A DNA stretch of 28,232 nucleotides from the IMG/VR virus record IMGVR_UViG_3300038674_000278, positions 1 to 28,232 of that record; one strand, given 5' to 3'. The number at the start of each line of letters is the position of its first letter. Position 1 is the first letter of the stretch. The DNA is from a virus (lineage: Duplodnaviria; Caudoviricetes). The notes below the pieces were generated by a model. The model searched no databases, had not been told where the DNA came from, and saw only the letters and a list, made by a program, of their open reading frames with translations. The position numbers were made by a program, and so were the translations under genes. This document shows positions 15,001 through 27,325 of this stretch, piece after piece.

Positions 15001-17384
15001 ACGGTATATCAGTGGGTCTTGTTCCTAAGTATGACGATATTCTTAGCATCATGGCCTATTACAGCCGAAGCAACAATGAAGCTATCGCCAACAAAAAGTT
15101 CTTAGATGATCTGAGTTTTCTTTGCGTCGAGGAGCGAAATAAAGATGGCGAGGTTGTCAATGCGTTGCCGTTGCTTAGCAGCGTGCATCCTTCTGTCTTC
15201 AACCGGGAACGGTATGTTATGTATCATGTTCCTGGAGTAGGCGACGTTTGGGTGTTGAAAGACGTGCAGAGAAGGTTTTCAAGCATATTTGGCACCATGC
15301 GCACGCAGGACGTACCCGACTGGCTGAGCAAGGTGGGTAAGGCATACGATACAGGCGGCAGCGTGATGAAGAAGATCCAGCTTAGCTTCTCTGGTTTCCA
15401 TGCGGGAGCATTGACCGAAGTAGCAATTGCGCAGATGAGACCAGACCGAGGAATGAAGGCTTTAATGCAATACGTCATTCTTGATAGCATTAAGACTGGA
15501 ACCCTACCCGCCTACGCCCATCCAGATGATTTCAGAGAGGCCGCAAAGCATCTGGTACAACTTGGAGCCACACAAGACTACGCCGCAGCCGACGTGAACA
15601 ACATCACGGAGAAGTTTAGGGACTATGCCAAGTCACTGAGCAAAGACGAGAACTTTGTGAAAGCAACTGCCGGAAAAGGTGCATTACCTTTAGCCGTGGT
15701 GTTAGACTATATGAATAAGGGCATGGATAAAATGTTGTGGAACTACCTTCATGACGGCCTGAAGCTTGCTTGCTTCAAGATGTTTAAAGAGCACATTGAA
15801 GACCGTGTCCGGAAACAAGGTCTCAGTGATAGCCAGCGTGAGCAGCTACTTGATGAGGCCGGCCAATATGTCAACGATACATTTGGCGGTCAATACTGGG
15901 AATTGCTAAACGTGAGCCCGGCTGCACTCAAATGGATGAGGCGCGCCCTTCTGTCACCGGACTGGCTTATATCTACGCAACGTCACTTTTTGAGTATGTT
16001 TGGTTTTGGCAGCCTGTACAGTGAAGGAGGTTTCAGAACCTGGCTCCAATACAATGTAGACAACACGAAGCGAGCTTTCGGTGCTGATATACCAAGAGAC
16101 GAAAACAGAAGGTTGCGCAGCGAGTATGCCAAGAAATGCTATATTCTTGGTGTGTGCCTTTTCTTCTATACACTGATGAATGGTCTCAACGCTGCTTTCC
16201 GTGCCAAGGACGAGGCCGATGAAAAGGCCAAGGCCGACGAGATAAGGAATACGCAGCCGGACTATATGAGCCCATACGAGTTAGCTTATCCCGAAGGTAT
16301 GAAATGGTATGACTATACCATGTTAGGTAACGGGTTAGGCCAGCAGACACACCTATTCGTAGGCCGGTATAAAGACGGTTCTGAGACCTACGTAAGATGG
16401 GGTAAGCAGTTCCGCGAATTTCCCGAAATGTTTATCGGACGCAAAGGCTTAGAGTTCCCTGCCCCTATGATTGAGCGAATGATGGGCAAATCAAATCCTA
16501 TGATCAGCCTTGTTAGAGATAATTTAGGTGCGCTTGGTGTATGGGGGTATGACAACAGCAGTGATATAGCCGAGATCCAGGCCAAGTATGGCAAAACTAT
16601 CGGCGTGCTTGCTGCGAACGCAAAACACTTCTTGCCATTCTCTTTGCCGACGCAAGCCGACAAAGAGTTTAAGATGGTCGACCTGGTGATGCCGAGCCAG
16701 AAAGGCTTCAGCCGATATAAAACCGTCGACTATTTTAAAGACTTCATTAAAAGTGGCGACTCCCTTGGTGTGGCCAGGACGTATCGTGCCGCCGTTATGA
16801 ACGGCATCGACGCTGAGGCCTGCCTGAAGGCAGCCATCAGCACGCTGAAGGCTGAGCAACGCGAAGAGTTGCTGGACGGCATAACGGACCTGTCGAGTGC
16901 CTATGAGGCTTATGACAAAGCCACTACCCTAACGGAAAAGAAGCACCTAAAAAACAAGCTGCACAAATATCTAGCTGAGAGCAACTACAAACAGTTCACC
17001 CGTGAAGATGCCCTGCAGATGATAGAGGACTACCAGAATGGTGACGATGTGCCCGAGAAGGAAAGCGATCTTTACCTTATGCGGACGACGGCCGAGGACA
17101 TCAGGGATGATTATCGGTTGAGCGCTATAGGCAAGCAGGCCAAGAAGTATGTGAAGAACATCAAGGAAATCCGTGAATCGGGCGACGAGGGACGTGCAAG
17201 GCAACTTTCCGAGCGGTATCAATCCTGGATCATCATAGACCGGTTGATCAATGCAGAGCACCGTCAGACACAGCGGCTGAAAAAACAGTTCGGCAAAGGC
17301 AATGACGCAGCAATTATGCAGCAGCTGAGACAGCTGAGACAGCAAACCCAGCATGAGGTGGCCGCCGTAGAGCCACCAAGGTAG
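3..17384 (+). CDS. Giant polyvalent DarB-like protein (>5,790 aa; 5' end outside the window), probable internal/ejected virion protein
   Basis: The frame is open from position 3 (GAC GGT TTT GAT AAG CTG TTG), so TTG at 21 is probably not the true start. Methyltransferase motifs MLDPSMGTG (7863) and NIPF (8064). Helicase motifs GAGKT (9981), DECQ (10473) and QRNGR (11484). HEKAGH at 13269. The MTase+SF2 core matches the P1 DarB architecture. Confidence 0.9.
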   Translation, partial: DGFDKLLTIGGHEATKFIADAWEWYGAGKVGGAITSGVRNKAIKGLATDLVERGIQADVAKGIAQRVFEQQARSIGTKAALASVGGAGTLGAQAAFSSGLRTATSHVGDVIASQQQREAEGEKLSAEDKQKEIAAADKERHSITNILTTAATSGLSGAGMGATFGLGSYVGSKLGKLASNYMGDVSSWAVEQAGRLTTNSAAAVAYDRAAGTITGQEPEESAADSFASNLVTFGLLDLIGAGKSTLFNSLRTGKGFHPIADYRAWKEHERRTGITEEDQQRMEDAGYGDMLDTVNSLVSERFRRGSTDVPAEWKPTDDAKASRVNDGMIKMLGDDRLPEELKRKYYELVTGDTGKKLSPIVATEVTEDEEGNSYLVTYNKNGGVVSDRKYRNANEAAKAQTAIGHEVDENMTSALQDGVLAKNADALLESAYQRAAEAYKNSEGNISDTDKVMLALYQHREPLANAIKAQASGEPLTAADQSLLDMYLRVKDSIYSHDPVLNDIRHTTEDAFGLGRNGLSDARKGHDRKAAEDMAKEAGEEVVHVGGDVYRTASEQAAVEDYRQRLWDYLNDVRDGEATEVREPKLLEVNAQAPEEAPATPATPGPTGGSGAPEGIQEGGEGASTPGTGSQPAGRRAQAYDRGKRVSEDEASLEQMQYETDLAKRRFTQAFPDGNNSAAKQASAIYSLVNAGEFDKAEELYNSQKDSFAPAQQSAVESLIDAASMQDGIEDSITEQSMEYQQQRMQELSAVADEQGNITPIVLDEGRTVFYKAGDLNNVYGGIIITNENGQQEQVPVRSVKQVGETQRAADMVSAETDQFANDLRSRYDDMRDGRVVVPGQQLTISFGNQTFNVTVDHEQADGSIVLTSEDGSPIALTPNDIATGVANARSQRIEQALAEDNLAMQQKALVDRFNNGIVGLKEGKPDFSAKESDPKVVAEYYHTYGDSFNLYEITNTISNLKAREDQARRELDRQSTWMELNGDNYAPEVKAQKEQIIAEARKTIADAESRRRKWGEIRNAYMTEEQRKAFQAERTANVNKAKDKVKSSPLSSIAVDGISDKDLLDNNATQNDASTYLDDRAREIIKDFDESTGSEMSNLRRQLSDYVSGYTEYSESELTDIMKQLREAEAKEVQVQDQVRQIRNRAKRLPLIYAERNKEALESMSAAERRRAIISRAKGYDALVKAADEAYKDSDMYGRLHDTEPETIEEYVASSLPYGQLNFEGTKMARGTMSNGLQQETGLSRGIGRGFDSNGINKYLAPKGKGISVAQMAEKIWGDRPSLFENYTDADIRNIILELLGSAQKATDISHMILLHRIAEVEAYERAREEAERAEIEEEAARRQADLLTYQDYLDNTAEDITLTEEISDYIAGVIADELYEREQQRLTYMDALSQLLSEDEELINSYTNGEEGLGAPGSGTEMDQESGRRSVQEGTGEGQALVPGKEAGQPDFSGTYHAEGTRDWTAGGESKDRHSDADGSVHLDGRTQGLKRDRQEVDLHPTEAQKEAGNYKKGHIKIDSYDVTIENPKGSTRTGKDANGEEWSVPMNYDYGYIRGTKGVDGDHIDVYLSDEPTSGNVYVVDQIDQQTGEFDEHKVMYGFPSMEAAREAYASQYKDGWKIGTITEVSRWEFKKWVDSSTRKTKPFSEYKSVKAEPRHDMTGNGTEGAKTDYQGNPLNEDGSLKVEKLLSVDEITDEDLSKPTRSVELPTLPKNVDKAIGANGKPVIIKKNIFEKNWMHHKFPFEESRTILKSALYNTDLVGQTQPSKKPMHWVAIKLDDKSPIVILEVNEGKDNTEIVDWYTLDARNLERIKRQAVKNGGELVILSSKDKVGSLSTPLTNLSSVGKDTKENVDLQENKDNSYETNRNVLQQPRHDMTGDGTHEEEQEDVITHTPVGQPLRKATQEDLETSSRVWYDGKFHRIMLLIHSGEQVNAISFSKPEITSVIFQDGAEVSGNSINDLYVVDEKREEPSEQAPVDLSILGPITTKTIKNGETRWMVKPTERVDHDVYLKYNDWAKKFGGFYASKFKGYLFKTEDDARSFKRQTPSKAEVEKEPVADVKPKQDATDTLLDVVDQRKGQGEEQPQPYYDYDREDDVTSKVLAELRDVLAKGNGIPNIKAIESQIRDLKKRVKVVEDGLSIASGDTVVKGFETLATLNGRLNAYEQFLGELRTRMKETERDDALAAHGLQLGDKVKYYDEEGTIVDADERQVRLDTGHAPVLYVVADWDKIELPKAKQEKPEDATDALLDEVAKRKGQTKEGAKKAGGNLEPTSKSTIFEGQENQLENYGSNDTAAAGSPEGTSQQNRPLGGILPNGDRVLESPSTSGNNGGETSGEGTGMPGLAQREPGVLPGFGSDGTASVGSDGRSEGEPVGTGRRRSVGNGKSQTGRRTNRRTTAGSGVAEGGGSVPNEGGQPGSERDHREGNHGSRTSASRTRVPGEPSTVGTPSRPVDSDTRLDNGTKKDANERNTPLNTRNYLYPENGADIDNMSESERLKANVEALEILVKLIRERRVATEEERAIIGMFRGWGGIDIKSYHNAEQLKDATRWSSRLGASPSDDYKRRLGEVILSLDPDGKKDLFSSIKQAALTSYYTPLPIAAAINHFLDASGYHGGGTMLDPSMGTGVFEGTMPKDMQQRTRIYGIELDWLTAQLAKQLYPDANIQNVGYQDAQLAKGSFDVVESNIPFGAFKVYDSSWRHDSSPAKKAAQGKIHTYFALKMMESAKPGGLVTIMTSNSIMDTKGNAIIRNELLDQAEFLGALRLPDNTFKGAGTRVVTDVIFLRKYKDESDRETTMRNEDYQARTKQFTTITTVKAQNSQGNRELDVPVNAYFKEHPEMMLGKVVAGGQYREDDFGLVSDENAQELANKMIANIDNYIVGDRKGRLYDTHKTERQIYQAIREAYVGNGDYANSGNIVEQNGKIGVLSKNGNSSELIFEEDPNLNKNAARIRLMIPIRTAMKKLIAAQINRESDDTIAGYRKELNDAYRAFVDKFDILNAKANNFIDSDIDSYQIKSLEDYDPVTKKVKRLADIFTKDTIKPQLDITKINDPVGAITTSLAEYGDIRPSFMEKALGEDWANLCGSALFQVPFSENYVVSEDYLSGDVKSKLIDAKRAAEADPKYKVNVEALEKVQPRDIPINDINIRMGARWVPDKVYNDFMRYAFGIPERYNANSGIRYVPEADDYVINVDNVELSGEADKWRTDRKSVREIFEAAMKDKSLQVFDRVDSGTQVLLNREETQLANDKVQELRETFETWVASDPERGADLEKLYNEKFNRTVPRKWNGDFLNPVGLQGKTLRPHQKAAVWMLMNNQGGIVDHIVGAGKTLVMQSAIMEMRRTGIAKKPMILALKATVGQIAKEFSEAYPAARLLAPTEKDFSEKNRKKLLAKIANNDYDCVIISHEQYVKLPHTEEVESMTFREQFDQLEVAILLLRQSNDTSQLTKRQLKGLQKRKANLEANLKKISDRAVDPEFTFENLGIDYIFVDECQMFKSLPYATTYNQVAGLGNPTGSEKAVALLNGIRYLQQLHQGDRGTVFLSGTTITNSLVEVYNLLNYLRPNMMKKLGYTTFDAWAAQYAVRTSELEYGVSNQLKEKNRFRYFQNVAELGKLYSEIADVRNDANLKLPKPEPRTHLVAIEPSDKLSEINSQITHMIQAKDASYFPDVKQSDDPKKTPWSLMASTLSTKASVSPRLIFPDLPDEEHGKIAVACKNVIDIYKKFDKEKGTQLIFCDTGVAAAGKPYDAYSDIINRLVEAGIPRKEIVDIHVANTDDKRKALFKKVLEGSVRVLIGGTKNMGTGVNVQTRLVALHHIDIPWQPADVEQRNGRGVRQGNELAKNSNDNKVELFYYAVKGSLDMYRYQLQDIKGKMFTQFKLNTIDSDSAREFDEGEIDADGNIDPAQMVAILSGNPVIFEKSKQDKLVKKLMRQQSAELSDWQRRKRNYEHYETRKSEMSVFIEKNNADIKKIKENGFVEDDKGQYPSSYKIVMDDGTTLPWKKVSEAGEIINKLITEGKKFHLEGFGVKARVQLGAGQDMFGQNTLVLDNQTGWNKGILYQVSMSGDSTADGVAFRRLLKKVLDNHDVYAKKMDDYNHKLQGKDTLGQFEFSKQEQLEKALQRQKELNAEYRKLSEGEDTKAPEAQPDSDRMASRGTRRKSAREMMANLSKAEAFIEQPFDKNTKGRFYVDLPAETEQKIRKATGTSYVSHSIVADNIRHANNNHGVDGKKLTTKSIPLTHEDFKLIPYIITAPDRVIKGSVDNNGRESIRFVKYLSNGLVIVVEKEHIKRPSEMETITAWADMSSEVLDARSEGTSPELNVRNVILGSDAAKIRKDAENAVNKDEKDRLMQIETIQRAARRAGDMLGGTEVNFADADSHKDADADMRRKRGDKGFYDPKTGEVALFPENIVDEVDAARTVFHEKAGHEGLKALLGSQQEVDKFGQFIFENAGKKLRARIIKRADAEEYGWDDALRFSKAAQEEFADIASEGPATQEEFSLWRKIKHYLIKALKKLGIRIPGILNDQDLRYYTIKTAEALKNPTAVVSGEREHYEGADRMASRGKPRQRKGETMSQYIERLKEWEKWKRAEEASRANDDPMPEKADYDAKAEEDFARALSEWKAQNGISAEESELGPFPKRADGESPQEYAVRVADWETRKDAWQGAPNYFDYMQAAQDQYRDDYTAWKTRYDLNEEAQVDMSFYEGRGSEPQTEEEAAEQADLERRVDRDLGVAVGIDLTPEGARRKAKLAVIERRKNLESASAEDAIFIHDIGKEISNVAKSLGMKDKDLRSQLIDVIENPLQQLEGEIDMDHWVEVLNRSFAFNDAHTYITPESVQSAYDELQDFYSIILKNGVRPENAEQRKEIFDAAVKLAHRLGLYYEGVDDYNRPFSDTILRVTKWMGKLAEAQLMANRAHTLSDNPEVQGLVSKIHDWYDEFFHLIEDAGFRGDAGYISEGYVNHIWSKEKSDPEAYERYVENYQRTKSPNMRKREIATYVDGISVGLVPKYDDILSIMAYYSRSNNEAIANKKFLDDLSFLCVEERNKDGEVVNALPLLSSVHPSVFNRERYVMYHVPGVGDVWVLKDVQRRFSSIFGTMRTQDVPDWLSKVGKAYDTGGSVMKKIQLSFSGFHAGALTEVAIAQMRPDRGMKALMQYVILDSIKTGTLPAYAHPDDFREAAKHLVQLGATQDYAAADVNNITEKFRDYAKSLSKDENFVKATAGKGALPLAVVLDYMNKGMDKMLWNYLHDGLKLACFKMFKEHIEDRVRKQGLSDSQREQLLDEAGQYVNDTFGGQYWELLNVSPAALKWMRRALLSPDWLISTQRHFLSMFGFGSLYSEGGFRTWLQYNVDNTKRAFGADIPRDENRRLRSEYAKKCYILGVCLFFYTLMNGLNAAFRAKDEADEKAKADEIRNTQPDYMSPYELAYPEGMKWYDYTMLGNGLGQQTHLFVGRYKDGSETYVRWGKQFREFPEMFIGRKGLEFPAPMIERMMGKSNPMISLVRDNLGALGVWGYDNSSDIAEIQAKYGKTIGVLAANAKHFLPFSLPTQADKEFKMVDLVMPSQKGFSRYKTVDYFKDFIKSGDSLGVARTYRAAVMNGIDAEACLKAAISTLKAEQREELLDGITDLSSAYEAYDKATTLTEKKHLKNKLHKYLAESNYKQFTREDALQMIEDYQNGDDVPEKESDLYLMRTTAEDIRDDYRLSAIGKQAKKYVKNIKEIRESGDEGRARQLSERYQSWIIIDRLINAEHRQTQRLKKQFGKGNDAAIMQQLRQLRQQTQHEVAAVEPPR
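4231..4479 (+). CDS. Putative overprinted 82-aa gene (+1 frame inside the giant ORF)
   Basis: AT-rich leader (AACTAATTAATAGCTACACAA-ATG). The product looks helical, while the host frame over the same interval is G/S/E-rich and disordered. Confidence 0.5.
   Translation: MEKKDLERLDRAQKWIKSLDAEAFKKELAKAKRLCQEKKLVSPISVERIMQRVPEIGQQAANLRIAILMLTEAYIWMEEHKD
4500..4965 (+). other. Inorganic-pyrophosphatase-like domain within the giant protein
   Basis: PTEAQKEAGNYKKGH...IENPKGS.R...YGYIRGTKGVDGDHIDVY...DEHKVMYGF. The YG...DGD.ID and D.K motifs are typical of the PPase-fold domain found in phage polyvalent proteins. Confidence 0.8.
4969..5000 (+). repeat. 32-bp direct repeat, copy 1 (with internal hairpin)
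   Basis: AGCCCCGCCATGATATGACGGGGAACGGAACC, 31/32 identical to 5620-5651. Confidence 0.95.
5010..5480 (+). other. Predicted PBECR (Barnase/EndoU/ColicinE5/D/RelE-like) RNase module 1
   Basis: VIIKKNIFEKNWMHH...ILKSALYNTDLV...beta-rich IVILEV...EIVDWY pattern. AT-richer than its flanks and bounded by 32-bp direct repeats. Assigned by resemblance only. Confidence 0.55.
5542..5574 (-). promoter_or_regulatory. Antisense sigma-A promoter behind RNase module 1
   Basis: The minus strand reads CTTG-N20-TATCTTTGC, with TTTCGTATCTTTGC at 5555-5542. Confidence 0.6.
5620..5651 (+). repeat. 32-bp direct repeat, copy 2
   Basis: AGCCCCGCCATGATATGACGGGGGACGGAACC. Confidence 0.95.
6199..6782 (+). repeat. 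Degenerate ~50-bp direct repeats (6199-6248 and 6733-6782) encoding DATDxLLDxVxxRKGQ
   Basis: QDATDTLLDVVDQRKGQ versus EDATDALLDEVAKRKGQ. Confidence 0.8.
6815..6846 (+). promoter_or_regulatory. Internal Bacteroidota sigma-A promoter upstream of the nested ORF at 6874
   Basis: TTTG (6815-6818), a 20-nt spacer, then TATATTTG (6839-6846): matches the -33/-7 consensus. Confidence 0.7.
6874..7368 (+). CDS. Putative overprinted 164-aa acidic protein (+1 frame inside the giant ORF)
   Basis: Has its own consensus promoter and an A-rich leader. The sequence is E/D/L-rich and protein-like, while the host frame is low-complexity G/S/R/T across the same span. Confidence 0.68.
   Translation: MAAMTQQQLEALKEQASKIGRWAEYYLTEIEYWNPLQLPEITEEKLREKEQECRDWLSENQAYYPDSGATEQLRSDLTEEVKANPWALDDDVASEMESHRLDGAPIEELLQDLELQKEEGVYPMREDNLDLNEIIEKAITGQELLPAEREYLENHLPSELLRGL
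7430..8620 (+). other. N6-adenine DNA methyltransferase domain (DarB-like)
   Basis: RLKANVEAL...FRGWGG, YYTP, motif I LDPSMGTG, GIELD, motif IV SNIPFG, LRLPDNTF...VVTDVIFLRK. Confidence 0.9.
9900..11640 (+). other. SNF2-like superfamily 2 helicase/ATPase domains
   Basis: LRPHQ, HIVGAGKT, VDECQ (DExH variant), SGTTITNS, QLIFCD, GTGVNVQ, EQRNGRGVRQGN. Confidence 0.92.
12540..12915 (+). other. Predicted PBECR-type RNase module 2
   Basis: HSIVADNIRHANNNHG...DFKLIPYIITAPDRV...IRFVK...VIVVE...ITAW. The H..N.HG, PD and terminal (I)TAW pattern is characteristic of PBECR/MuF-C-like toxin domains. Assigned by resemblance only. Confidence 0.65.
12914..12992 (-). ncRNA. Candidate ~80-nt structured antisense small RNA
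   Basis: Begins a few nt downstream of the -7 box. The ends can pair (GTCA/TGAC, CCGAGG/CCTCGG) and enclose two hairpins (CGTTC-AGAAG-GAACG; ACGT-CCGAA-ACGT). Confidence 0.4.
12996..13009 (-). promoter_or_regulatory. Antisense sigma-A -7 element behind RNase module 2
   Basis: Minus strand TTTCGTATCTTTGC, identical to 5542-5555. The -33 box is less clear. Confidence 0.55.
13070..13620 (+). other. Zincin-like metallopeptidase (MPTase) domain
   Basis: KGFYDPKTGEVALF...RTVFHEKAGHEGL...AQEEFADIA: HExxxH plus a downstream EE, as in polyvalent-protein peptidases. Confidence 0.75.
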
Positions 17385-17393
17385 GGATACAGA

Positions 17394-17425
17394 AAAGGGG
17401 ACTGGCCTCACGGCTGGTCCCCTTT
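17394..17425. terminator. Probable bidirectional intrinsic terminator
   Basis: AAAGGGGACTGGCC-TCAC-GGCTGGTCCCCTTT hairpin between two convergent genes. Confidence 0.85.
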
Positions 17426-17465
17426 GAAATCCTCTAAATTATATGAAAAAAAAGAATGTTATCAG

Positions 17466-17891
17466 TTAACCTATACAGTGCGGAGATTTGTTTGCTTTCT
17501 GGGCCCACTTCTTGTATTCATCCCAGGAGTCATCCATCTTCTCCTGCATAGTAAGCGTTTTCTTTTCGGACTCATCATAGATCGCAGAAGCGATGCTCTC
17601 AATCGTGAACCTCCATTCTCCACGAAACAGCACTGCCCCGCGTTGTGGTATCACGGTAGCATCATACTCGCTGGTATCTGCTCCCGTCACAACACCTTTG
17701 AACGGGACGTTATTGTCCTTCAGGAACTTTTCTACGCCGTCTTTATCCTGATCGGATACACGAATATAGACGTCAATATTATTTTTGGAAAGCGTTGTCA
17801 ACGCCTCCTTTGCATTTGCAACCAGTGTGCGCTGCCCTTTGTCATCAGAGGCGACAATGCACCGTTCATCGACCTTTACTTTCTTGCTCAT
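17466..17891 (-). CDS. 141-aa protein with a degenerate HAD-like fold
   Basis: NAKEALTTLSKNNIDVYI...VEKFLKDNNVPF...RGAVLFRGEW resembles small capless HAD proteins, but the DxD and DD motifs are replaced. It has its own promoter and terminator. Confidence 0.7.
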   Translation of the reverse strand: MSKKVKVDERCIVASDDKGQRTLVANAKEALTTLSKNNIDVYIRVSDQDKDGVEKFLKDNNVPFKGVVTGADTSEYDATVIPQRGAVLFRGEWRFTIESIASAIYDESEKKTLTMQEKMDDSWDEYKKWAQKANKSPHCIG

Positions 17892-17916
17892 AGCTTTTGC
17901 GTTTGATTATGATATG

Positions 17917-18019: not shown

Positions 18020-20077
18020 ATGAAAACAAGTATCATTAACGACAACAGCGGAGGGAAGGAACGTGGCAGTAACAGCCTGTCAGGTTACGATCATGCACGT
18101 TTTTCTAACGACCGGAGATATACGGAACTTGTTAGAGAGGCTAAAGCGTATCACGACAATATGCGTGCCCTCCGTCTGAAATGGAAACGCGATATAGATT
18201 ATTACATGGGGCGCCAGCTCAATGACAAGGTAGTGTACAATGGTATGAGTATCAGTGTGCACGACTATATGGAGCTGAAAGGAATGCCTGCCATTAGTAA
18301 TGATATTATCAGCGACAAGATGATGACGCTTAAAGGTCTTGTGCGCCAACAATACATGGCCCCCACAGTGAAGAGCGTTGACAGTAACGAAGCTGATTAC
18401 GCCAACCTTTTTAATGAGTTTTTGCGGCAGAACGACAATAACAATAACAAAGCTGAGCATTGCGCAGACCAGTTCGAGGCAAGCATTTGCCTCGGTTTTA
18501 TCTGTGACAAAATAAAATGGACCTTTCGTGATGGGCGCGAAGACGTTTTCACCGACGCTGTAGACCCGTTCAAACTTGCTATACCGGTATGGGAGAAGAA
18601 AGACCTAAGCGACATAGAGTTTATTGCTGAGGCCCATGATTTGACTTGGCCGCAATTATTAAAGGCATTCTACCGCTCGCCAAGTGACGAGCATAAGCTA
18701 AGAAACATCTATCTGGCGGCCAACCAAAACAGGCCGGTGCAAGGCTATAATGATACCGGTATGGATCAAAAGGACCACACAGACGACTTTTTATACCCTG
18801 ACACGATGGGCAAATATCGCTATATCGAGATATGGAACAAGGAATACAACCGCAGTCTTTGGGTGCATGACCGTCTCAATGCGTCAGTAGGCTATCGCAG
18901 TTTGAGCGAACGCGCAGCCATCGACGCAGAAAATGAGCAGCGGCGCCAAGACAATATCATCAAGGACGAAAATGGCATACCCCTTCTTGACGCAGAAGGA
19001 AACGAACAATACTATACAGCTCCAGAAGATTTAGAGCTGATAGAATATGAGCAACAGATAGAAGAGATATGGTATTATCGTTGCATCAGCCCCAATGGTT
19101 ATTTGCTTGATGAAGGCGTTAGCCCGTACAAAGTGCTTAGGGATGGATACAGTTTCTACTATCATCCCTACGTGTTCCTGGCTTATGGCTTTATGAATGA
19201 GATCAGGAGCTTCGAGGATCGCCTAATAGACAAGCAGCGCCAGTATAATCATGATAACATTCTGATAGACTTCGTTATCATGAACTCGTCTAAAGGCGCG
19301 CTCGCCATCGATAAGGAGTCGCTTACTCCAGACATGAGCATTGAAGATATTGCAGAGAACTATGTGAAGGTAGATGGCACTATCATCTACACCAGTAAGA
19401 ACGGCGGTAATATCCCTCAGAGCATACAGAACAGGAGCCTACCTGCAGGCGTTGAAATGATCTTGCAGCGAGACCGCGAGCTTGTTACCAGTCAGAGCGG
19501 AATACAGCCCGCCCTGCAAGGTGTTCATCATAATGCGTCAGGGCGCCAATATCAGATAGAAAGGGACAGCGCAGCCACAAGCGTGACAGATTACGTTAGC
19601 GCCTTCAATAACTTCCAGCTTCGATCAGCCAAGAAACAGTTATGGACCATACAGTGGAACTATGATTCCCACCGCAGCATACTGCTCACCGGTGACGATG
19701 TAAAGAGTTATTATAATGCGGACACCATGCGAGATATTGATTTCGATTTGGCTCTTACGCTTGATGCAAACAGTACAGTAATCAGAGAGCAGCTAAAGGA
19801 TCTTGCTTTCCAGGCCTACCAAAAACAAGAGATCGAATTTGGCCAGATGCTCGATGTTGCAGACTTTGGTGACACAACCAAGCTAAAGCGTGCTTGGGAA
19901 GACTATAAAACTCGTAAGATGCAAGAAGCCCAGGCTATGCAAGAAGCCCAGGCTCAAAACGGACAGCCCGTAACACCAATAGCACAGGCTGACCCGTCAG
20001 CAGGTGCAGCACATCTTAGGCCTGCCGGTGATGCCTCTGGCAATACCCTTGCCGGTACGCCAGGCACTTCTTCATGA
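18020..20077 (+). CDS. Portal protein (P22-like podovirus type)
   Basis: 685 aa. Motifs WKRDIDYYMGRQ, G.PAISND, VDPF, LIDKQRQYN, SGIQPALQG...SGR and a Q/A-rich tail. Located near terL and the capsid gene. Confidence 0.82.
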   Translation: MKTSIINDNSGGKERGSNSLSGYDHARFSNDRRYTELVREAKAYHDNMRALRLKWKRDIDYYMGRQLNDKVVYNGMSISVHDYMELKGMPAISNDIISDKMMTLKGLVRQQYMAPTVKSVDSNEADYANLFNEFLRQNDNNNNKAEHCADQFEASICLGFICDKIKWTFRDGREDVFTDAVDPFKLAIPVWEKKDLSDIEFIAEAHDLTWPQLLKAFYRSPSDEHKLRNIYLAANQNRPVQGYNDTGMDQKDHTDDFLYPDTMGKYRYIEIWNKEYNRSLWVHDRLNASVGYRSLSERAAIDAENEQRRQDNIIKDENGIPLLDAEGNEQYYTAPEDLELIEYEQQIEEIWYYRCISPNGYLLDEGVSPYKVLRDGYSFYYHPYVFLAYGFMNEIRSFEDRLIDKQRQYNHDNILIDFVIMNSSKGALAIDKESLTPDMSIEDIAENYVKVDGTIIYTSKNGGNIPQSIQNRSLPAGVEMILQRDRELVTSQSGIQPALQGVHHNASGRQYQIERDSAATSVTDYVSAFNNFQLRSAKKQLWTIQWNYDSHRSILLTGDDVKSYYNADTMRDIDFDLALTLDANSTVIREQLKDLAFQAYQKQEIEFGQMLDVADFGDTTKLKRAWEDYKTRKMQEAQAMQEAQAQNGQPVTPIAQADPSAGAAHLRPAGDASGNTLAGTPGTSS

Positions 20078-20498
20078 TAGGCGAAACAAAGTGTAGGTAA
20101 TAGTTTACCCACTGCTTTAACTTCTGCTCGCGCACTCGATTGTCATCGTCACAACCGAGTGCGCCCCATTTAGACGGGGTATAGTAGAACGAAGACTTCT
20201 TCATGGAGTCTACATCAGAAGGGAGGTTACGCCCCCTCATCTTACCCATGACCCGCAAGCGCTTGAAAGCAGGCTTAAACAATTTGTTGTCTTCATAGGT
20301 CATCAGTGACCAAACCTGGTGCTTTGCATCAAAGAACAGATATACGCGCGGTGCACCGATCTCTTTGTACATATCCAAACATTGGCGTACCCCATCTTTC
20401 CACTGCCGCACGGCGCGGAACTTCTCTATCCGAAGAATGGCCGGATAATACAACCTAAACATGCCGTCAAGAAGGGCGGTCTTCACATTTTGCTTCAT
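20016..20498 (-). CDS. Hypothetical basic protein, last gene of the terminase operon
   Basis: 160 aa with an A-rich leader, starting 20 nt after the terL stop. Its 3' end overlaps the portal 3' end. Confidence 0.7.
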   Translation of the reverse strand: MKQNVKTALLDGMFRLYYPAILRIEKFRAVRQWKDGVRQCLDMYKEIGAPRVYLFFDAKHQVWSLMTYEDNKLFKPAFKRLRVMGKMRGRNLPSDVDSMKKSSFYYTPSKWGALGCDDDNRVREQKLKQWVNYYLHFVSPIMKKCLAYRQGYCQRHHRQA

Positions 20499-20518: not shown

Positions 20519-22657
20519 TTATATTCCTACGATCTCTGGAGCAAGAGGCCGTTGGCGTAACATCTTCTCTCTCTGAATTTCTTCAGGTGTTTTAGGCTCG
20601 ATAATGCGAGGAGGATCCATCTCTCGATCAACCCATAAGCCGATTGCGCGCGCCATCACCCGGTCATCGTGCTTACCTGGTGCATTGCCGTACTTATCAC
20701 CATATTGCATGTAATATGACAGTTCATTCAACGCCTCACTTTCACGCTCCATATATCCCTGCCGTCTTAATACCGCTGCCATGTACTTAATCATGGCCAC
20801 CTTAGTAGCTGTGTTGGTGTTAAATCCCCATCTTATTTCCTTCGGTTTTCTCTTTAGCGTCTTAGAGTGATTGCTATTATATACATTGCTGTAGAGTGGA
20901 ATAAGTATGGGGAAGAACAGTTCTGATACATCGCCGTCGGTATCATTCATCTTGGAGTATGCGGTATTGTTTTCTACTACCAAGAGTGCATCAACATACA
21001 AACTTGCTATTTGCGCGCATTTCATCGCCATTTGGTCAGGGTTACCATGCCCATGCCATTCAGCTACCACAACAGGCACACCTCCGTACATTTCATCGTA
21101 GCGGTCAAACACGACTATATCGTAGTAGTCAGATGTTTTGTGCGAACCGCCAATATCCATAGATACTAAATACCTGTTGACAACGTTTTCGGACCTATCA
21201 GGGTATTCCCACACCTTGAAAGGACCGCCCGCCTGTTGAACGAGGCGAATACCTTGCATACATTGTTCGTTCTCTGGCAATGTGGAGTCCCCTTCAATAT
21301 CGCCGATGAACATAGGCTGTGTACAGTCTGGTTGCAAACGGTCGATATGGTACAAGTCGAAGACAGCGCGCCCCGAATATTTGAAAGCTTCAATGTCATC
21401 AGATGGGAACTCCTGCTGCATGTCGTCAAGCGACGGATAACCATTATATGATTTAGCCTTCTTAATGTACCATTTTATGCCCTGCAGCGTAGCACCCTTC
21501 TGCCATAACCACCAATAGTACCTACCATTAAACCGTTCGTCATCACGGTTAAGCCAAAGCCACTGAACAAACTCATTTTGTTCATCGTCGGTCATTGGCG
21601 TGAAGTAGTCTTCAATCTCAAACCACGCCACGAACACCGGCGTATATTCAGACAGACTATTGCCATCATCATCTTTAGACTTGGCACGCACCCATTCGTC
21701 GTGAAATTCGTTTTCCCGGCCATTTGGTGTTGACTCGCGGACAATGAAATTGTAAGGCAGAAAGCGAATAGGTGATATTACAGCCTTAACCACTTTTGCC
21801 GGATCCCATTTTTCGGTTTGTGGGAAAAAAGCCTCTTCTGTCAGATGTACCATACCCACCGTGTCAGAACGTGCGGCCTCGGGGTTGAGGGCAGATCCAG
21901 TCTGAATGCGACAATCGCGAGGTACAAGATATTTGATATTGGGATTATGGCTATCGTTCTTTATCTTCTTGACATCTTCTGGATAGCGTTCACCTGTACC
22001 ATAGAATAACCACAGAGGTAGCGCTTTGATCAGTCGCTCATACATATTGAACACCGTAATAGAAGACGTCGACTGGTGGCCAACAATAGAACAGTTCCAA
22101 GAGCGTTTCCAGAAAAGCTGTATCCACACCATATAAATATCAGCGAGTGTTGATCCACCCCATTGACGACATTTAAGGAGGATGACGCATATCGGAACAC
22201 CAGCCAAGCGCATAGTCTCGAAGATCTGGCATAATTTGCGCTGAGCTCTTCGAAGGTAAAACGGTATGTCAGGGCCACCCGTGGCATTTTTTATCCTGGC
22301 GTAGGCATAGGCAAAGAAATAGAAATCATGCTTACAACGCTTGCGACAAAATCTGCGAATTACAGCTTCGCGTGAAGCAGCCATATTTCCACCTTCCATG
22401 TACTGGCTGATATATGCCTCTACGGAACCGCATTTTATCAGCGCCACTATGAATTTAGATTTCAGCATTGTGACGGGCAGAAATAGCTGTTGCCCACCCA
22501 AAATATCACTAATAACACATGCAAATCTTTTGCCTGGTGCTTTGTGGCCAGTCAGAGGGTTATAGCCATCCATTAGAACGGCTACACGTCTCTTATTCTC
22601 TGATAGCATTTCTTTCATCAGAGCCGATGTAATCGTCTTCTGCTTGACACTACTCAT
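20519..22657 (-). CDS. terL: Terminase large subunit
   Basis: Walker A ILLKCRQWGGST, Walker B VHLTEEAF, ESTPNG, QQEFPS, and RNase H-like nuclease motifs SMDIGG, VVENN and HDDRVMARAIG. Confidence 0.93.
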   Translation of the reverse strand: MSSVKQKTITSALMKEMLSENKRRVAVLMDGYNPLTGHKAPGKRFACVISDILGGQQLFLPVTMLKSKFIVALIKCGSVEAYISQYMEGGNMAASREAVIRRFCRKRCKHDFYFFAYAYARIKNATGGPDIPFYLRRAQRKLCQIFETMRLAGVPICVILLKCRQWGGSTLADIYMVWIQLFWKRSWNCSIVGHQSTSSITVFNMYERLIKALPLWLFYGTGERYPEDVKKIKNDSHNPNIKYLVPRDCRIQTGSALNPEAARSDTVGMVHLTEEAFFPQTEKWDPAKVVKAVISPIRFLPYNFIVRESTPNGRENEFHDEWVRAKSKDDDGNSLSEYTPVFVAWFEIEDYFTPMTDDEQNEFVQWLWLNRDDERFNGRYYWWLWQKGATLQGIKWYIKKAKSYNGYPSLDDMQQEFPSDDIEAFKYSGRAVFDLYHIDRLQPDCTQPMFIGDIEGDSTLPENEQCMQGIRLVQQAGGPFKVWEYPDRSENVVNRYLVSMDIGGSHKTSDYYDIVVFDRYDEMYGGVPVVVAEWHGHGNPDQMAMKCAQIASLYVDALLVVENNTAYSKMNDTDGDVSELFFPILIPLYSNVYNSNHSKTLKRKPKEIRWGFNTNTATKVAMIKYMAAVLRRQGYMERESEALNELSYYMQYGDKYGNAPGKHDDRVMARAIGLWVDREMDPPRIIEPKTPEEIQREKMLRQRPLAPEIVGI

Positions 22658-23141
22658 TACGAACCTCCTTTATCAGCTTGCTAACCGCTCTCTCTACGAA
22701 CCAGAAGATAACTCCACACCCAAACATAGCCAAGTGACACGCACCAGCAAATTGCGGTATGAACAACGTCAGTATAATTACTGCCAAATTGCAGAAGAAC
22801 GCTGTCCGGTTATGAGACCAATAGTATTGTGCCACATAGCCTACGAAGAATGCAACTATCGTTGATGCACCTAATACAGGTGTAGAAGAAACTATGAACC
22901 CGATGAAGGATATTATTACTGCTAAGATATACGCTGCTACGACACGGTACCATCGTACAACATTAACCAGCAACATCATTGACCAAGTATTACACATCCA
23001 ATGAAAAATATTGGCATGGGCGAACATGTAGACAAAATGAGTATAAAACGGTGTGCCATTAGACACCGACATGTCTTGCCTATATGCCACAAGTGGAAGC
23101 AAGCTGAGGCTCACCAAAATCAAGTAATATAACCTTTTCAT
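22650..23141 (-). CDS. Rhomboid-family intramembrane serine protease (minimal)
   Basis: Several hydrophobic helices; YMFAHANIFHWMCN (HxxxxHxxxN), LGAST (GxS nucleophile) and ACHLAMFGCG (catalytic His). Confidence 0.88.
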   Translation of the reverse strand: MKRLYYLILVSLSLLPLVAYRQDMSVSNGTPFYTHFVYMFAHANIFHWMCNTWSMMLLVNVVRWYRVVAAYILAVIISFIGFIVSSTPVLGASTIVAFFVGYVAQYYWSHNRTAFFCNLAVIILTLFIPQFAGACHLAMFGCGVIFWFVERAVSKLIKEVRNE

Positions 23142-23557
23142 TCGGTATCCTTTCCTTTTCTCTGATAACGTGATATTTTAAGCTGCAAAATCCAAGGAGT
23201 AAGCCCAACGCATGGGGCTGGCCTGGATAAAGCCATAAACACCGCTGACTGTACTGATAGTTGAGGCTGCATTTTGATAACATCTTTGAACTCTACCCAT
23301 AGCGCATCATATAATTTCTGCTTGTAGCAAGTACAGAACTTGCGCTTCTGGTTGTGTAATAGCCGTCTTCTGATATAGTCTAATGCCGACTCGTCAGAAA
23401 TGCAAAAAAAAGGCGTAGGAATATCTGCCGCAATAGTGCACAATTCTTTCATAGTCGTAGGATACTGTGCAATACCTTTGGCTTGATTAAAAAGCATAGG
23501 GATCACCTCCCGATCACGCTTCAAATACGTTTGAGAAATGCTGCCAAGATGTTTCAT
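23138..23557 (-). CDS. Hypothetical protein (139 aa; start revised to MKHLGS)
   Basis: The ORF-track extension to 23656 runs through the AT-rich promoter region. The ATG at 23557 follows a -7 box, and the stop overlaps the rhomboid start (ATGA). Confidence 0.7.
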   Translation of the reverse strand: MKHLGSISQTYLKRDREVIPMLFNQAKGIAQYPTTMKELCTIAADIPTPFFCISDESALDYIRRRLLHNQKRKFCTCYKQKLYDALWVEFKDVIKMQPQLSVQSAVFMALSRPAPCVGLTPWILQLKISRYQRKGKDTE

Positions 23558-23563
23558 ATAAAA

Positions 23564-23580
23564 TATATTTGGCAAATATA
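23564..23580. promoter_or_regulatory. Palindrome of two facing -7 boxes; the minus-strand copy probably drives the terminase operon
   Basis: TATATTTG-G-CAAATATA. Confidence 0.6.
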
Positions 23581-23585
23581 ACAAA

Positions 23586-23634
23586 TAGAATTTATATTTT
23601 ATGACATTGACAGAGGGAAAAGCATGTACTTTTA
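23586..23634 (+). promoter_or_regulatory. Scaffold/capsid promoter: shared 20-bp motif plus -7-like element
   Basis: TAGAATTTATATTTTATGAC (23586-23605), 21 nt, then TACTTTTA (23627-23634). Confidence 0.6.
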
Positions 23635-23654
23635 CGAAAAATATTTGAAAGCCC

Positions 23655-24455
23655 ATGGTAAAAGCAATTCAAGCACAAGCTACTACAAGTGATAAGCCGA
23701 ATATTAGCGCGCGGACTCGCCTTGTAGATCGTTTCAAGGCTAACGATCCGAATTTCAACGATACGGATGATGAGGCCGTATGGGGCGCAGCAGCTGACCA
23801 GCTGGACAAAGATGACGAAAGCGCAGCTCAGCGACAGAGATTTAACGAGGCTATCGCCAATAGCGACATAGCTCCTGAAATGATGAGCGGTATTTTGAGC
23901 GGCAAGAACGCAGATGGCACCGACTTCGACCTGGAAGAGTACTTGTTTGACAAGCACCTTGATTTCTTTGAGGACTATCTTGAAAACAAAGATGGTGCGA
24001 AAGACAAGCTTGCAGCGCGCAAAGCCCAACGGCAGAAGGAAGCCGAAGAGACAGCAGCCTTCAACGATGGCTTAGCTGACCGTATTAAGGCAGAAGATGC
24101 AGAGCTTGATGCCGCACTCAAAGAAAGTGGGTACAAAGAAGACCAAGTTAAAGATCTTATAGATTGGATCTACGATGACAAGACCGGTATTGTAGCGCGT
24201 GCCAGCCGCTTCGAGCTAACCAAAGACGATTTCCTTAACCTGTTTCGCATTAAAGATTACGATCTTAAACTGGGCGAGGCTGAAGATAAGGGCTATCGCC
24301 GCGGTAAGAACGAGAAGATCGACATGTTTGCCCGCAAACAGGATCGCCGTCGCCAGTTGCCTCCAGACCAAGGCGGTGGAGGTGGTGACCACAAGGGACC
24401 AGTTGAAAAAAATCCCACGTTGGCAGCCCTCGACAAAATGAAGGAGGTGTATTAG
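23655..24455 (+). CDS. Probable capsid scaffolding protein
   Basis: 266 aa, acidic, helical/coiled-coil, with a G/P-rich C-terminal linker. Lies immediately upstream of the capsid gene. Positional inference. Confidence 0.6.
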   Translation: MVKAIQAQATTSDKPNISARTRLVDRFKANDPNFNDTDDEAVWGAAADQLDKDDESAAQRQRFNEAIANSDIAPEMMSGILSGKNADGTDFDLEEYLFDKHLDFFEDYLENKDGAKDKLAARKAQRQKEAEETAAFNDGLADRIKAEDAELDAALKESGYKEDQVKDLIDWIYDDKTGIVARASRFELTKDDFLNLFRIKDYDLKLGEAEDKGYRRGKNEKIDMFARKQDRRRQLPPDQGGGGGDHKGPVEKNPTLAALDKMKEVY

Positions 24456-24554
24456 CACTGGAGGGCCTTCGCCATTATATTGCGAAGCACTGGCCCAAGG
24501 ACTAATTAAATGCAAGAATCAATTAGGCATCAACAATAAATTTATACGAGAACA

Positions 24555-26084
24555 ATGAAAAGATTTGGAAAATGGTTCGGATTTTTGCTGTCGGTGATGG
24601 CAATTATCTTTAGTGGTGGTTTTGCCATGGCAGCTGACACAGTGTTAGATAATCCCGTGGCAGATCTTGACGGCGGCGCCGGTGTCGAGGTGGGCGGTGC
24701 AAAGACGCGCACAAGCGCCGAAGGCGTTGTTGAGGATCAGCTTAAAGACTATGATTATTATGTCAAGCAGATCAACCGCCGCATTTGCGAAATGAAACTG
24801 GAAAGTTGCCCAGTGGATCAGATCCTTCGCAGCGCATCGCGTAGTAATCACAGTGTCAGCATGGTAGTTAAGTATTATCAGATTGGCCAGCGACCTATTA
24901 AGAGTACGCTCAATGAGAATGTAACGGCTACATCTGATGGTGTGGCTCATGTCGTTAAGCCGCTTAATAACGCCACATTCGACTCCATGGATACTATCAT
25001 CTTCCCTGAAGTGATGGGCTACAAAGAAGACGGCGAGACGCGCGAAACCCTCAAACCTCTTATGGTTCGTGTGGTAAACCGAGACGCCACCAATTATCCC
25101 ATGGTTATTGCTATCAATGGCAAGAAGAACCAGGCACAGGGTAACCGTTATGACCTGCCGAACATTCCTAAGGGTGCTGTTATGTTGAGACTGGGGCGCG
25201 CAGCAGGCGAAACAGACGTAGAGACAGCCAGCTACTACCAGTTGCCAGAAGCCAGCGAGCAGTATTGCCAGCGCTTCATTATGCAGGCAGAGGAGAGTAT
25301 CATTGAGCGAATGAGTGCCAAGGTAGTAGACTGGGACTTCTCTAAGCAGGAGCGTGTCGCTATGGACGATATGCGCGATGGTATTGAACGCTCAGGACTC
25401 TTCGGTATCAAGGGAAAGATTAACTACGGCAAGAGCGGTAACATCTACACTACAGGCGGCATCTATTGGACCGCAGCCAAGGATCTTTCTTTAGGTCACT
25501 GGGCTCCCAAGCTCGAAAAGAGCGAGGACGGAACTGAAAAGGCCGTAACGGTAAGCGTTGACGATGGCCTGGGTGGCACGACCCAGAAGGCCGTCTATGA
25601 GTACGTCATTCTAGAGAAGGAACTTACCAGCTTTGTCAATGCAGCCATTAAAGACGCCGGTAACGGTAGCCGCACAAAATTGCTCTTTGTCGACAACCTG
25701 ATCTACCAGGCACTGAGTAATCTGAAGAGCCGTCGTCGTGTCATCATGCAGACCGAGGCCAACTATCAGAATTGGGGTCTTGACTTCGAGAGCTTCAGCT
25801 CGATGGGCACCAAGATTTTGATTTATCGTCACGACGCGTTCAACTACATGGGCATGAGTGGCTGTGCCTTCTTGCTTGATCCCCGCTACTTAGAGAAGTG
25901 GATATTCGGAAACTGGAGTCGCAAAGAGTACAATCTGAAGGATCTGTTTGTACGCAACTCGAACGCCGTAGTCATGGAAGAGTTCAGTTGCTGGACGCTC
26001 TATTTCCCCAATGCACATGCCCGCGTTATGCGCCCTGAGTTTGACGAGACGAAGGGGGTAACAGACGAGGTGGTTGCGGCATAA
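24555..26084 (+). CDS. Major capsid protein (HK97-fold, DUF5309/SU10-like) with an N-terminal signal-peptide-like segment
   Basis: 509 aa. QYCQRF...FSKQERVAMDDMRDGIERSGLFG...YTTGGI and SSMGTKILIYRH...AFLLDP resemble that capsid family. It follows the scaffold and precedes a hairpin. Confidence 0.75.
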   Translation: MKRFGKWFGFLLSVMAIIFSGGFAMAADTVLDNPVADLDGGAGVEVGGAKTRTSAEGVVEDQLKDYDYYVKQINRRICEMKLESCPVDQILRSASRSNHSVSMVVKYYQIGQRPIKSTLNENVTATSDGVAHVVKPLNNATFDSMDTIIFPEVMGYKEDGETRETLKPLMVRVVNRDATNYPMVIAINGKKNQAQGNRYDLPNIPKGAVMLRLGRAAGETDVETASYYQLPEASEQYCQRFIMQAEESIIERMSAKVVDWDFSKQERVAMDDMRDGIERSGLFGIKGKINYGKSGNIYTTGGIYWTAAKDLSLGHWAPKLEKSEDGTEKAVTVSVDDGLGGTTQKAVYEYVILEKELTSFVNAAIKDAGNGSRTKLLFVDNLIYQALSNLKSRRRVIMQTEANYQNWGLDFESFSSMGTKILIYRHDAFNYMGMSGCAFLLDPRYLEKWIFGNWSRKEYNLKDLFVRNSNAVVMEEFSCWTLYFPNAHARVMRPEFDETKGVTDEVVAA

Positions 26085-26163: not shown

Positions 26164-26598
26164 ATGTTATACGAATTTTGTTCAGAGCGTCAATTTGTCT
26201 TCACCATAGAAGTAGACGGGAAATCTCGCCTCGTAGAGTTTTCCGAACGCAATCAGTTTGGCGCAAGTGTATATCAGACCGCAGACAGCAAGGTGGCTGA
26301 TAAGATACGCAAAACAAGTATGGTTCGTGTTGGTCAGATTGTTGAGACAACCAAGATAACAGAAGCTCCCAAAGAGCGCGCTATCCTGAAGTCGATTACT
26401 ACACCAGCCTCTGAAAACCATACAGCCAAATCAGAGACAAGCGAAGGAATTACAGAGAAGACGTTTCCGAGCATTACGCAGGCTCGTGAGTTTATTGTCT
26501 CGACTTTCGGCATCCCCAAGGCTCAACTAAAAAAGCCTGAAACACTGAGCCAGGTAGCAGAAGAGCACGGTATCAAGCTGGTCATCAAACAAGAGTAA
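26164..26598 (+). CDS. Hypothetical protein (head-gene cluster)
   Basis: 144-aa ORF with two small domains joined by a T/S/E linker; 1 nt from the next gene. Confidence 0.75.
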   Translation: MLYEFCSERQFVFTIEVDGKSRLVEFSERNQFGASVYQTADSKVADKIRKTSMVRVGQIVETTKITEAPKERAILKSITTPASENHTAKSETSEGITEKTFPSITQAREFIVSTFGIPKAQLKKPETLSQVAEEHGIKLVIKQE

Positions 26599-26599
26599 T

Positions 26600-27325
26600 A
26601 TGAAAATCGCCGTAGATACATTGCTTAACATGTGCCACATTGCATTAGACGAGGTGCGTATTGGTGCTGATGATGATTTCAGTGAAGATCTCAGGTCGGA
26701 GTTGAGCCAATGCCTGCTATTGTCGTGCGACGAGCTTGTACTTTCGGCGCCAGCTGATCGGCTCATGCCGCAACCCGTTGTTGCTGTAGTAAGTGGTCCG
26801 GAAGACTATGACGCCATCAGGACAGAATACACAGACGGACATGGCAGCTTGATTATCCCTAACGATTTCTTGCGCCTCTACGAGTTGAGGCTGCGGAGCT
26901 GGCAGGGCACAGTAAGGACGCTTCTTGATCCAGGGAGTGAACAAGCAAAGATGCAAAATAGCCGGTGGACTCGTGGCACACCTCAGAAGCCAATGGCCAT
27001 GCAGGAAACCGACGGCCAGGGCCGACGTGTTATTACCTACTGGACTGCCGGCCGATACAGCTCTCCACAGCCTGAGAATGTTCAAAGTGTATATGACCAT
27101 TGGATTGAACGGTTTACCTATCTCCCACAAACCAAGATTATTGATGAAGACGAAACATCAACAAGCGACACTGGAGAAACCACTACAACCAAGGTACAAT
27201 ATCTGGTTTGCGCCTTAACAGATGACAGCGTAAAAAACCTAATCTATCGTGCTGTTAGCAAGTTCTTAATATCGAAGAAAGAAAGCACAGTAGCAGAGCA
27301 GATGCAACAGCTTAGTACATTTTAA
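26600..27325 (+). CDS. Probable head-tail adaptor / tail tubular protein
   Basis: 241 aa. The IPNDFLRL motif (P.D.LR) and N- and C-terminal helices are typical of podovirus adaptors. Position is after the capsid gene. Confidence 0.55.
   Translation: MKIAVDTLLNMCHIALDEVRIGADDDFSEDLRSELSQCLLLSCDELVLSAPADRLMPQPVVAVVSGPEDYDAIRTEYTDGHGSLIIPNDFLRLYELRLRSWQGTVRTLLDPGSEQAKMQNSRWTRGTPQKPMAMQETDGQGRRVITYWTAGRYSSPQPENVQSVYDHWIERFTYLPQTKIIDEDETSTSDTGETTTTKVQYLVCALTDDSVKNLIYRAVSKFLISKKESTVAEQMQQLSTF

Follow-up and report, generated by a model that had tools for sequence, protein, structure and literature searches.

Rhomboids such as GlpG (E. coli / H. influenzae) and AarA (Providencia) are intramembrane serine proteases whose substrates, as set out by Strisovsky et al. 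(PMC2941825), require a small residue at P1, a large hydrophobic residue at P4 and a hydrophobic residue at P2'; AarA trims a short stretch off the N-terminus of TatA, in which Asp at P2' is deleterious, and Ala at P2' is allowed by the rule (PMC2941825). In the phages T4 and SPN3US, head assembly takes place on the inner membrane, and release follows proteolysis and precedes DNA packaging (PMC9026906). The virus record IMGVR_UViG_3300038674_000278, analysed here over its whole length of 28,232 bases (the window), carries a predicted rhomboid gene that overlaps the gene for the terminase large subunit (terL), close to a gene for a major capsid protein that begins with a hydrophobic, signal-like leader. 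The window is a partial genome, of a full size of ~60 kb, from a temperate Bacteroidales phage of the Prevotella gut type; close relatives measure about 57-69 kb. It is suggested, at about an even chance, that the leader anchors the precursor of the capsid protein in the inner membrane until it is cut off, a task that would fall to the phage rhomboid in this clade and to a host enzyme in other lineages. The wider scenario is put forward tentatively, with something short of even confidence: a large family of tailed phages of Bacteroidota would build HK97-fold heads from membrane-anchored precursors, and the rhomboid captured by its gut branch would be a capsid maturase, cutting a leader of reverse polarity and freeing the shell for packaging.

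The rhomboid and the capsid leader

The features that carry the argument are as follows.

20519..22657, minus strand: terL, terminase large subunit, its start overlapping the rhomboid end by 8 bp (PHROG 5989 and 24361; tblastn to annotated terminases)
22650..23141, minus strand: predicted rhomboid-fold intramembrane serine protease, 163 amino acids (aa) (PF01694, structure model, Foldseek to GlpG, catalytic residues)
24555..24632, plus strand: capsid leader, residues 1-26 (sequence; helix 4-20 in the model; putative cut site)
24555..26084, plus strand: major capsid protein, 509 aa, SU10_MCP / DUF5309, HK97 fold (PF17236, structure model, Foldseek)

A preliminary description of this DNA had reported a rhomboid gene overlapping terL by 8 bp and, about 1.4 kb away, a capsid protein with a membrane leader; both are borne out by the open reading frames (ORFs), the profiles and the models, and the two gene starts lie 1414 bp apart. 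The rhomboid carries the catalytic motif residues H42xxxxH47xxxN51, G91-A-S93 and H136, the codons of S93 and H136 lying at 22863-22865 and 22734-22736. The Pfam Rhomboid profile (PF01694) matches the window ORF just below its cut-off (E 1.6e-4; 22.4 bits vs 22.6), and the homologues in G003-G005 exceed it. The AlphaFold model (predicted local distance difference test, pLDDT, 90.7) has six membrane helices plus a loop helix, and the first 14 rows of its Foldseek search are GlpG structures with probability 1.0 (best template modelling score about 0.67, E 8.8e-3), no match reaching E<=0.001; the Atlas structure rows for the phage rhomboid name Rhomboid clusters. When the rhomboid alignment was searched as a sequence profile against solved structures there were 0 matches, and there were likewise 0 to the NCBIfam families at E 0.01, which include the rhombosortase model, for both the rhomboid and the capsid. 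Among 236 distinct homologues, H42 and H47 are present in all, N51 in 235 (one N-to-T), S93 in 232 and H136 in 229, the rest being gaps, and these columns align with the catalytic residues of host rhomboids. Judged by these sequence features, the window ORF is a real, minimal six-helix rhomboid with intact predicted catalytic residues.

In trees built with FastTree (midpoint-rooted, long branches flagged), all 20 of the phage rhomboids included fall in a single clade with a Shimodaira-Hasegawa-like support of 98, separate from the host rhomboids, which were represented by nine rows of which one (L572, in the wrong frame) was disregarded. Host rhomboids are present in 5/5 Bacteroidales genomes checked. 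A WR motif in the first loop is a feature of the rhomboid family; it is absent from the window rhomboid, in which this loop is shortened, and the host enzymes have WR or W. Basic residues are found at both termini and in loops 2 and 4, a placement that suggests the usual topology, with the active site facing the periplasm. Structure prediction of the rhomboid together with residues 1-50 of the capsid protein gave a score of 0.01 and a mark of 0.32, with no controls folded alongside, and is not used as evidence.

The capsid protein matches PF17236 (SU10_MCP) at E 2.9e-15 (57 bits vs a cut-off of 24.1), and Foldseek places it with the capsid of Vibrio phage VP1 (E 1e-21), followed by those of crAss001, SU10 and HK97; its nearest named relative, at 77%, comes from an uncultured Prevotella bin. 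The leader consists of a basic n-region, an uncharged run of 21 residues, an S-G-G turn and the sequence GGFAMA-A, with a predicted cut after A26; in the model (pLDDT 89) a helix spans residues 4-20 and residues ~23-50 form an acidic, Gly-rich linker of low confidence. A24 and A26 are invariant in 17/17 close relatives, in the window's subclade. The leader was read by eye on most of the best 150 representatives from 1.8 billion proteins and is kept on capsid homologues down to about 22-25% identity. Because the median net charge around the leader helix is +3 before it and -3 after it, an N-in orientation is predicted, with the basic N-terminus in the cytoplasm. The capsid is the sole conserved head protein of the window with a membrane segment, and no signal or membrane segment of this kind was found in the portal, the scaffold-like protein or the products of the two genes downstream. 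The uncharged run is shorter where a rhomboid is present (median 23, n=104) than where it is absent (median 35, n=37). In three other loci (L423:1834-3372, L424:5427-6977 and L422), the capsid ORFs have a long amphipathic or polar extension preceding the hydrophobic leader. An internal start at Met25 was rejected, since 8 of the 10 non-Met relatives checked have non-start codons there (GCC, CTT, GTA, GCA, TGT, CTG); an A-rich upstream context is found at the first capsid ATG only.

Distribution among relatives

The gene order and both features recur in 80/80 close viral loci and in three cultured Bacteroides phages, so the pairing of rhomboid and leader is not due to chance. The wider survey drew on eight scans, which yielded 508 loci; 6 non-capsid loci and 19 with cut, short or missing capsid ORFs were dropped and 483 were scored, many of them near-duplicates. 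A tblastn search of the rhomboid against the cultured phages returned nothing, though three of them carry homologues; sequence search is therefore insensitive for this gene, and its absence was judged from a wider profile and from the distance that separates terL from the scaffold gene. A leader is found in 386 of the 387 rhomboid loci (382 pass the hydrophobicity cut and 4 are visible just below it), the remaining one being masked by N. Conversely, 59 loci have a leader and no rhomboid between the scaffold gene and terL, and 37 were unscorable. In clusters at 70% identity, 23 have both, 28 have the leader only (28/51 scorable) and 9 are unscorable.

The co-occurrence among relatives that had been proposed as a check is thus one-way: the rhomboid implies the leader, but the leader does not imply the rhomboid, and strict two-way co-occurrence is rejected by an environmental clade that has the leader alone. 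In the capsid tree most leader-only loci fall in this separate clade, and the rhomboid occurs in gut Bacteroidales phages. In the 29 leader-only loci inspected, a small ORF usually abuts terL directly, at the place where rhomboid-bearing phages have the small gene 5' of the rhomboid gene. For G001 (58,339 bases, terminal repeats, CheckV 73%), the leader is present and the record as a whole holds no rhomboid match and no ORF with >=4 hydrophobic segments; the other leader-only loci were judged beside terL. Two leader-only clusters, L418 and L424, fall among the chromosome-resident copies, so that they are possibly not from intact phages. Retention of the leader without a rhomboid at random, which the preliminary description had named as a refutation, is thus seen in part: a large basal group has the leader alone, but the split follows clades and is not random.

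Since most leader-only loci form a separate clade in the capsid tree, the leader is ancestral and the rhomboid a later acquisition, apparently gained once, in gut Bacteroidales phages. It follows from the leader-only loci that the leader pathway does not, in general, depend on the phage rhomboid and, as distant relatives keep the leader without this protease, that a host enzyme could probably take its place. All rhomboid loci may derive from the one gain, in which case the large locus count represents few independent events.

Leaderless capsids are found only in chromosome-resident copies that have no phage-type rhomboid, and most of them begin near the predicted cut. Within the rhomboid clade, leaderless L253 and the pair L252 and L254 stand on separate branches, so the leader has been lost at least twice. 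The three genomes keep terL elsewhere; the small gene abuts terL in two, and there is no adjacent rhomboid in any of the three. These losses occurred in copies that are domesticated and also rearranged, and they are therefore not clean tests. L253 is chromosome-embedded and is 76% identical to the capsids of intact Bacteroides phages; it, L252 and L254 possibly represent repeated domestication, apart from a family-wide set of resident copies. That set is found in the Bacteroidales family of G008, in which 142/151 genomes have the capsid gene, mostly once, and six have a phage-type rhomboid (E<=1e-5), a seventh, partial match lying at the edge of L519; the phage-type rhomboid copies all occur with a short leader of the prophage type. 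The copies read in this family (e.g. L252-L254, L508-L510, L520-L568) form small clusters of scaffold, capsid and portal genes, which stand among host genes where the neighbours were read, with terL elsewhere in the three genomes checked. This looks like a domesticated set resembling a gene transfer agent.

A further 40 copies from this family, a non-random sample (23 top-scoring and 17 chosen mostly for short matches), comprise 24 with a leader and 16 without, of which a script called 14 and reading by eye 2. Leaderless copies mostly start a few residues past an L-A-[MF]-A motif, or within a few residues of its Ala, and the leader is therefore removable at about that point. A lipobox-like Cys occurs in 15/24 of the leaders, so that handling of the leader by the host secretion enzymes (Sec/Lsp) is plausible. 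In L520-L542 and L568 this Cys is followed by acidic residues and then by T-L-A-[MF]-A, as if in a lipoprotein precursor.

Head genes, candidate cleavage site and rival explanations

The remaining features of the window are listed below.

21..17384, plus strand: DarB-like polyvalent protein, 5787 aa, with methylase, SNF2 helicase, LPD13, InPase and PBECR3 domains (Pfam)
17424-17906, plus strand: ORF of 160 aa lying between the giant and portal genes, with two hydrophobic segments and without a family match
18020..20077, plus strand: portal protein of the P22-like type, lacking a signal or membrane segment (PF16510, E 2.5e-24)
20016..20498, minus strand: conserved 160-aa protein 3' of terL, kept in close loci, no family match
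23138..23656, minus strand: small conserved protein 5' of the rhomboid, likely start near 23554 (PHROG 27246; gene order)
23655..24455, plus strand: acidic helical protein just 5' of the capsid gene, no signal or membrane segment (PHROG 22323, of unknown function; conserved position)
26164..27325, plus strand: two conserved genes 3' of the capsid gene, 144 and 241 aa (conserved order; PHROG 22135 for the second)
27350-28231 (open end), plus strand: first part of a coiled-coil protein encoded 3' of the head genes, truncated at the record end

The genes around terL and the capsid form two divergent units: leftward, the small gene, the rhomboid gene, terL and the 160-aa gene; rightward, the scaffold-like gene, the capsid gene and two more. 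The protein at 23655..24455 (maximum hydropathy 0.43) is likely the scaffold, the two genes after the capsid are likely, from their position, to encode head completion or adaptor proteins, and the truncated product is probably a tail fibre. The small protein upstream of the rhomboid, for which the Atlas names no family, could be either a terminase small subunit or a Mor-like activator, one weak Mor match (E 0.067) having been obtained among 8 proteins scanned. Domains of the giant protein are named as an N6 methylase and a PBECR3 nuclease. By hydropathy it has one moderately to weakly hydrophobic segment near residue 5375, ~410 residues before the C-terminus, and a C-proximal segment is likewise found in BF1-TP2 and BKO1-TP3 (330-410 residues from the end across the three) and in the rhomboid-less G001. 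Homologues of the ORF at 17424-17906 are weak and occur in a minority of close loci.

As reported before, no HK97-type (S78) or ClpP-type protease is found in the head cluster of the window, and profiles for S78 (PF04586) and ClpP (PF00574) matched in 0/5 relatives of 91-100% completeness, the genome-wide search covering these two families and not S77 or S49. The annotation of BF1-TP2 has no prohead protease, bar an early gene that is labelled 'metallo-endopeptidase' and carries a structure note of DUF4494. Heads of the P22 type shed their scaffold with no protease involved, so the lack of a prohead protease is normal for them.

The site was analysed in a MAFFT alignment of 103 rhomboid-clade leaders, with 35 leader-only sequences treated separately. 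At the candidate site the 103 leaders have Ala at P1 in 94%, Val/Tyr/Phe at P4 in 89%, Met/Leu/Ile/Phe at P3 in 64% and Ala at P2' in 73%, giving the consensus G56-V68-x-M76-A94, then D/A/E/N, then A73 (numbers are percentages); that of the leader-only group is G86-(V/L)-(T/V)-(L/Y)-A77-x-A63. Taken across the clade, the site fits the P4/P1/P2' rule for rhomboids (PMC2941825), and in the window Ala26 at P1 and Phe23 at P4 both satisfy it. A small or bulky P3 differs between the groups at p 0.001 in 90% clusters and 0.12 in 70% clusters, a weak difference drawn from a permissive motif in related sequences.

In the mechanism proposed, the leader would insert with its basic N-terminus in the cytoplasm, and the body of the capsid protein would stay cytoplasmic, since the portal, scaffold and terminase have no export signal. 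The Gly/Ser turn would then let the G-hydrophobic-x-M-A sequence loop back into the periplasm-facing active site, which is the weakest step, and a cut near Ala26 would free subunits or proheads from the membrane before packaging. With the helix placed before the site, only a loop-back model fits; a type II rhomboid substrate may loop back in this manner, as proposed for Star (PMC2941825). The phage rhomboid is probably a captured, dedicated substitute for a host protease, made late together with terL. A rhomboid acting as the maturation protease, the central claim of the preliminary description, is partly supported by the one-way co-occurrence, the paired losses and the lack of a conventional protease, but the leader persists without it in 59 loci, and the link is best described as plausible and one-way. 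Release in step with DNA packaging agrees with the adjacency to terL, beyond which nothing further was found to support it.

Several findings weigh against cleavage of the capsid leader by the phage rhomboid. First, the geometry and the site are imperfect: the membrane helix precedes the site, whereas in classical rhomboid substrates it follows, and P2' in the window is Asp, which fails the hydrophobic P2' rule. Second, A24-M25-A26 after an n-h-c leader is a clean motif for signal peptidase I (SPI), and leaders of the chromosome-resident copies have the lipobox-like Cys described above. Third, the rhomboid belongs to the terL unit, divergent from that of the capsid, and at equal capsid distance leader identity is not higher in rhomboid-bearing phages, so that there is no signal of co-adaptation. 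To these are added the leader-only loci, the lack of any rhomboid match in G001, the possible single gain, the domesticated state of the copies with paired losses and, as the head has a P22-type portal and a scaffold, the small weight of a missing prohead protease.

The best-surviving alternative, which is nevertheless judged unlikely, is that host SPI (or signal peptidase II in lipobox copies) cuts the leader everywhere and that the rhomboid merely removes from the inner membrane the leader peptides left behind, hundreds for each head, or acts as a backup. The n-h-c anatomy with its invariant A24 and A26 in the window's subclade, the A-x-A present past the helix in rhomboid-bearing and leader-only groups alike, the persistence of the leader without a phage rhomboid and the lipobox-like Cys are all as expected of such an arrangement, and signal peptides are predicted on an unrelated capsid family of P. 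gingivalis phages (PMC10367356). Gln follows on average ~71% of SPI sites in Bacteroidetes, a tendency rather than a requirement (PMC5837995), but Gln is not one of the usual residues at +1, where the rhomboid-clade alignment has D/A/E/N/V, and a small residue followed by Gln occurs anywhere past the helix in only 6/104 leaders with a rhomboid and 2/37 without. In the rhomboid-less phages the motif lies a median of 15 residues (range 5-35, by a permissive pattern) beyond the hydrophobic window. This is far for SPI, a bulky residue at -3, which this register gives for 64% of the rhomboid clade at large, disfavours it, and cutting by SPI normally accompanies export, for which the portal, scaffold and terminase have no signal.

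Less likely again is that the rhomboid acts on another substrate, such as a lysis protein, a membrane or defence protein of the host, or the giant DarB-like protein at its hydrophobic segment, its late position serving only timing and the host handling the leader. Its place in a unit divergent from the capsid gene would agree with this, as would the segments in the giant proteins of the window, BF1-TP2 and BKO1-TP3 and the lack of co-adaptation, and a single gain within a leader-bearing clade would equally yield one-way co-occurrence. However, the giant protein of rhomboid-less G001 has a similar segment, the membrane ORF at 17424-17906 is poorly conserved among the loci, and leader and rhomboid are absent together in the derived leaderless copies. 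That the leader is left uncut and serves the capsid as an arm for binding the membrane, or that an internal start at Met25 bypasses it, with the rhomboid an unrelated passenger, is very improbable: Met is common at position 25 (76%) and an experimental N-terminus was found for no member of the family, but the non-start codons, the single A-rich context and the catalytic residues unchanged over 236 sequences all oppose it.

Comparison with known systems

As the preliminary description had supposed, no account of a rhomboid paired with a leader-bearing capsid, or of such a pathway in tailed phages, was found in the openly accessible literature. Phage rhomboid genes have probably been annotated before, given that two papers on Stenotrophomonas phages mention one (PMC5834331, PMC7326821). 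The nearest cultured counterparts are BF1-TP2 (PQ571263), BKO1-TP3 (PQ571269) and BS-TP4 (PQ571277), which have the same head cluster with a rhomboid beside terL, the leader having been read in the first two; their capsids are only 33-39% identical to that of the window, and no paper on BF1-TP2 was found. In these deposits terL is labelled 'tail spike protein' and the capsid DUF5309 or DUF2951, and in that of BKO1-TP3 the rhomboid is labelled 'glycoside hydrolase'. The three phages make the model directly testable, and the group is common in the gut, one Bacteroides variant alone giving 495 matching stretches.

If cleavage of the capsid leader by the phage rhomboid is correct, it would add a membrane-anchored precursor step to HK97-fold head assembly, make a virus-encoded intramembrane protease a capsid maturase and provide a rarity, a bacterial rhomboid with its natural substrate, in which the polarity of the substrate is reversed and the enzyme is a minimal one of 163 aa. 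Even without the rhomboid link, a signal-like capsid leader kept over such divergence calls for explanation. Removal of a viral coat anchor by a membrane protease is familiar from hepatitis C core with signal peptide peptidase and from M13 procoat with leader peptidase; these differ in using host enzymes and unrelated folds, and involve neither tailed phages nor a virus-encoded intramembrane protease.

With GlpG and AarA the phage enzyme shares the six-helix fold, HxxxxHxxxN, GxS and the His of the last helix, the predicted periplasm-facing active site and, at the candidate site, the small P1 and hydrophobic P4; it differs in its 163-aa length, its shortened first loop and separate clade, in the helix that precedes the site and in the Asp at P2' of the window. 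The rhombosortase/GlyGly-CTERM system (PMC3237569), found by co-distribution, likewise joins a dedicated rhomboid to a substrate with a Gly-Gly motif, a membrane helix and a basic cluster, but in the phage the signal is N-terminal and in mirror order (basic, helix, Gly-Gly, protein), the target is a capsid and the co-distribution is one-way. The Nixviridae, represented by a P. gingivalis prophage (Matrishin et al., PMC10367356), are also Bacteroidota phages whose capsid has a predicted Sec/SPI signal peptide; theirs, however, is a 668-aa protein of a different capsid family encoded beside an S49 prohead protease, and the word 'rhomboid' does not occur in the main text of that paper or in the part of its phage annotation table examined. 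Finally, in T4 the tether to the membrane is the portal with YidC and the protease is gp21, within the core (PMC9026906), whereas in the assembly proposed for the present phage each capsid subunit would carry its own tether and the protease would be embedded in the membrane.

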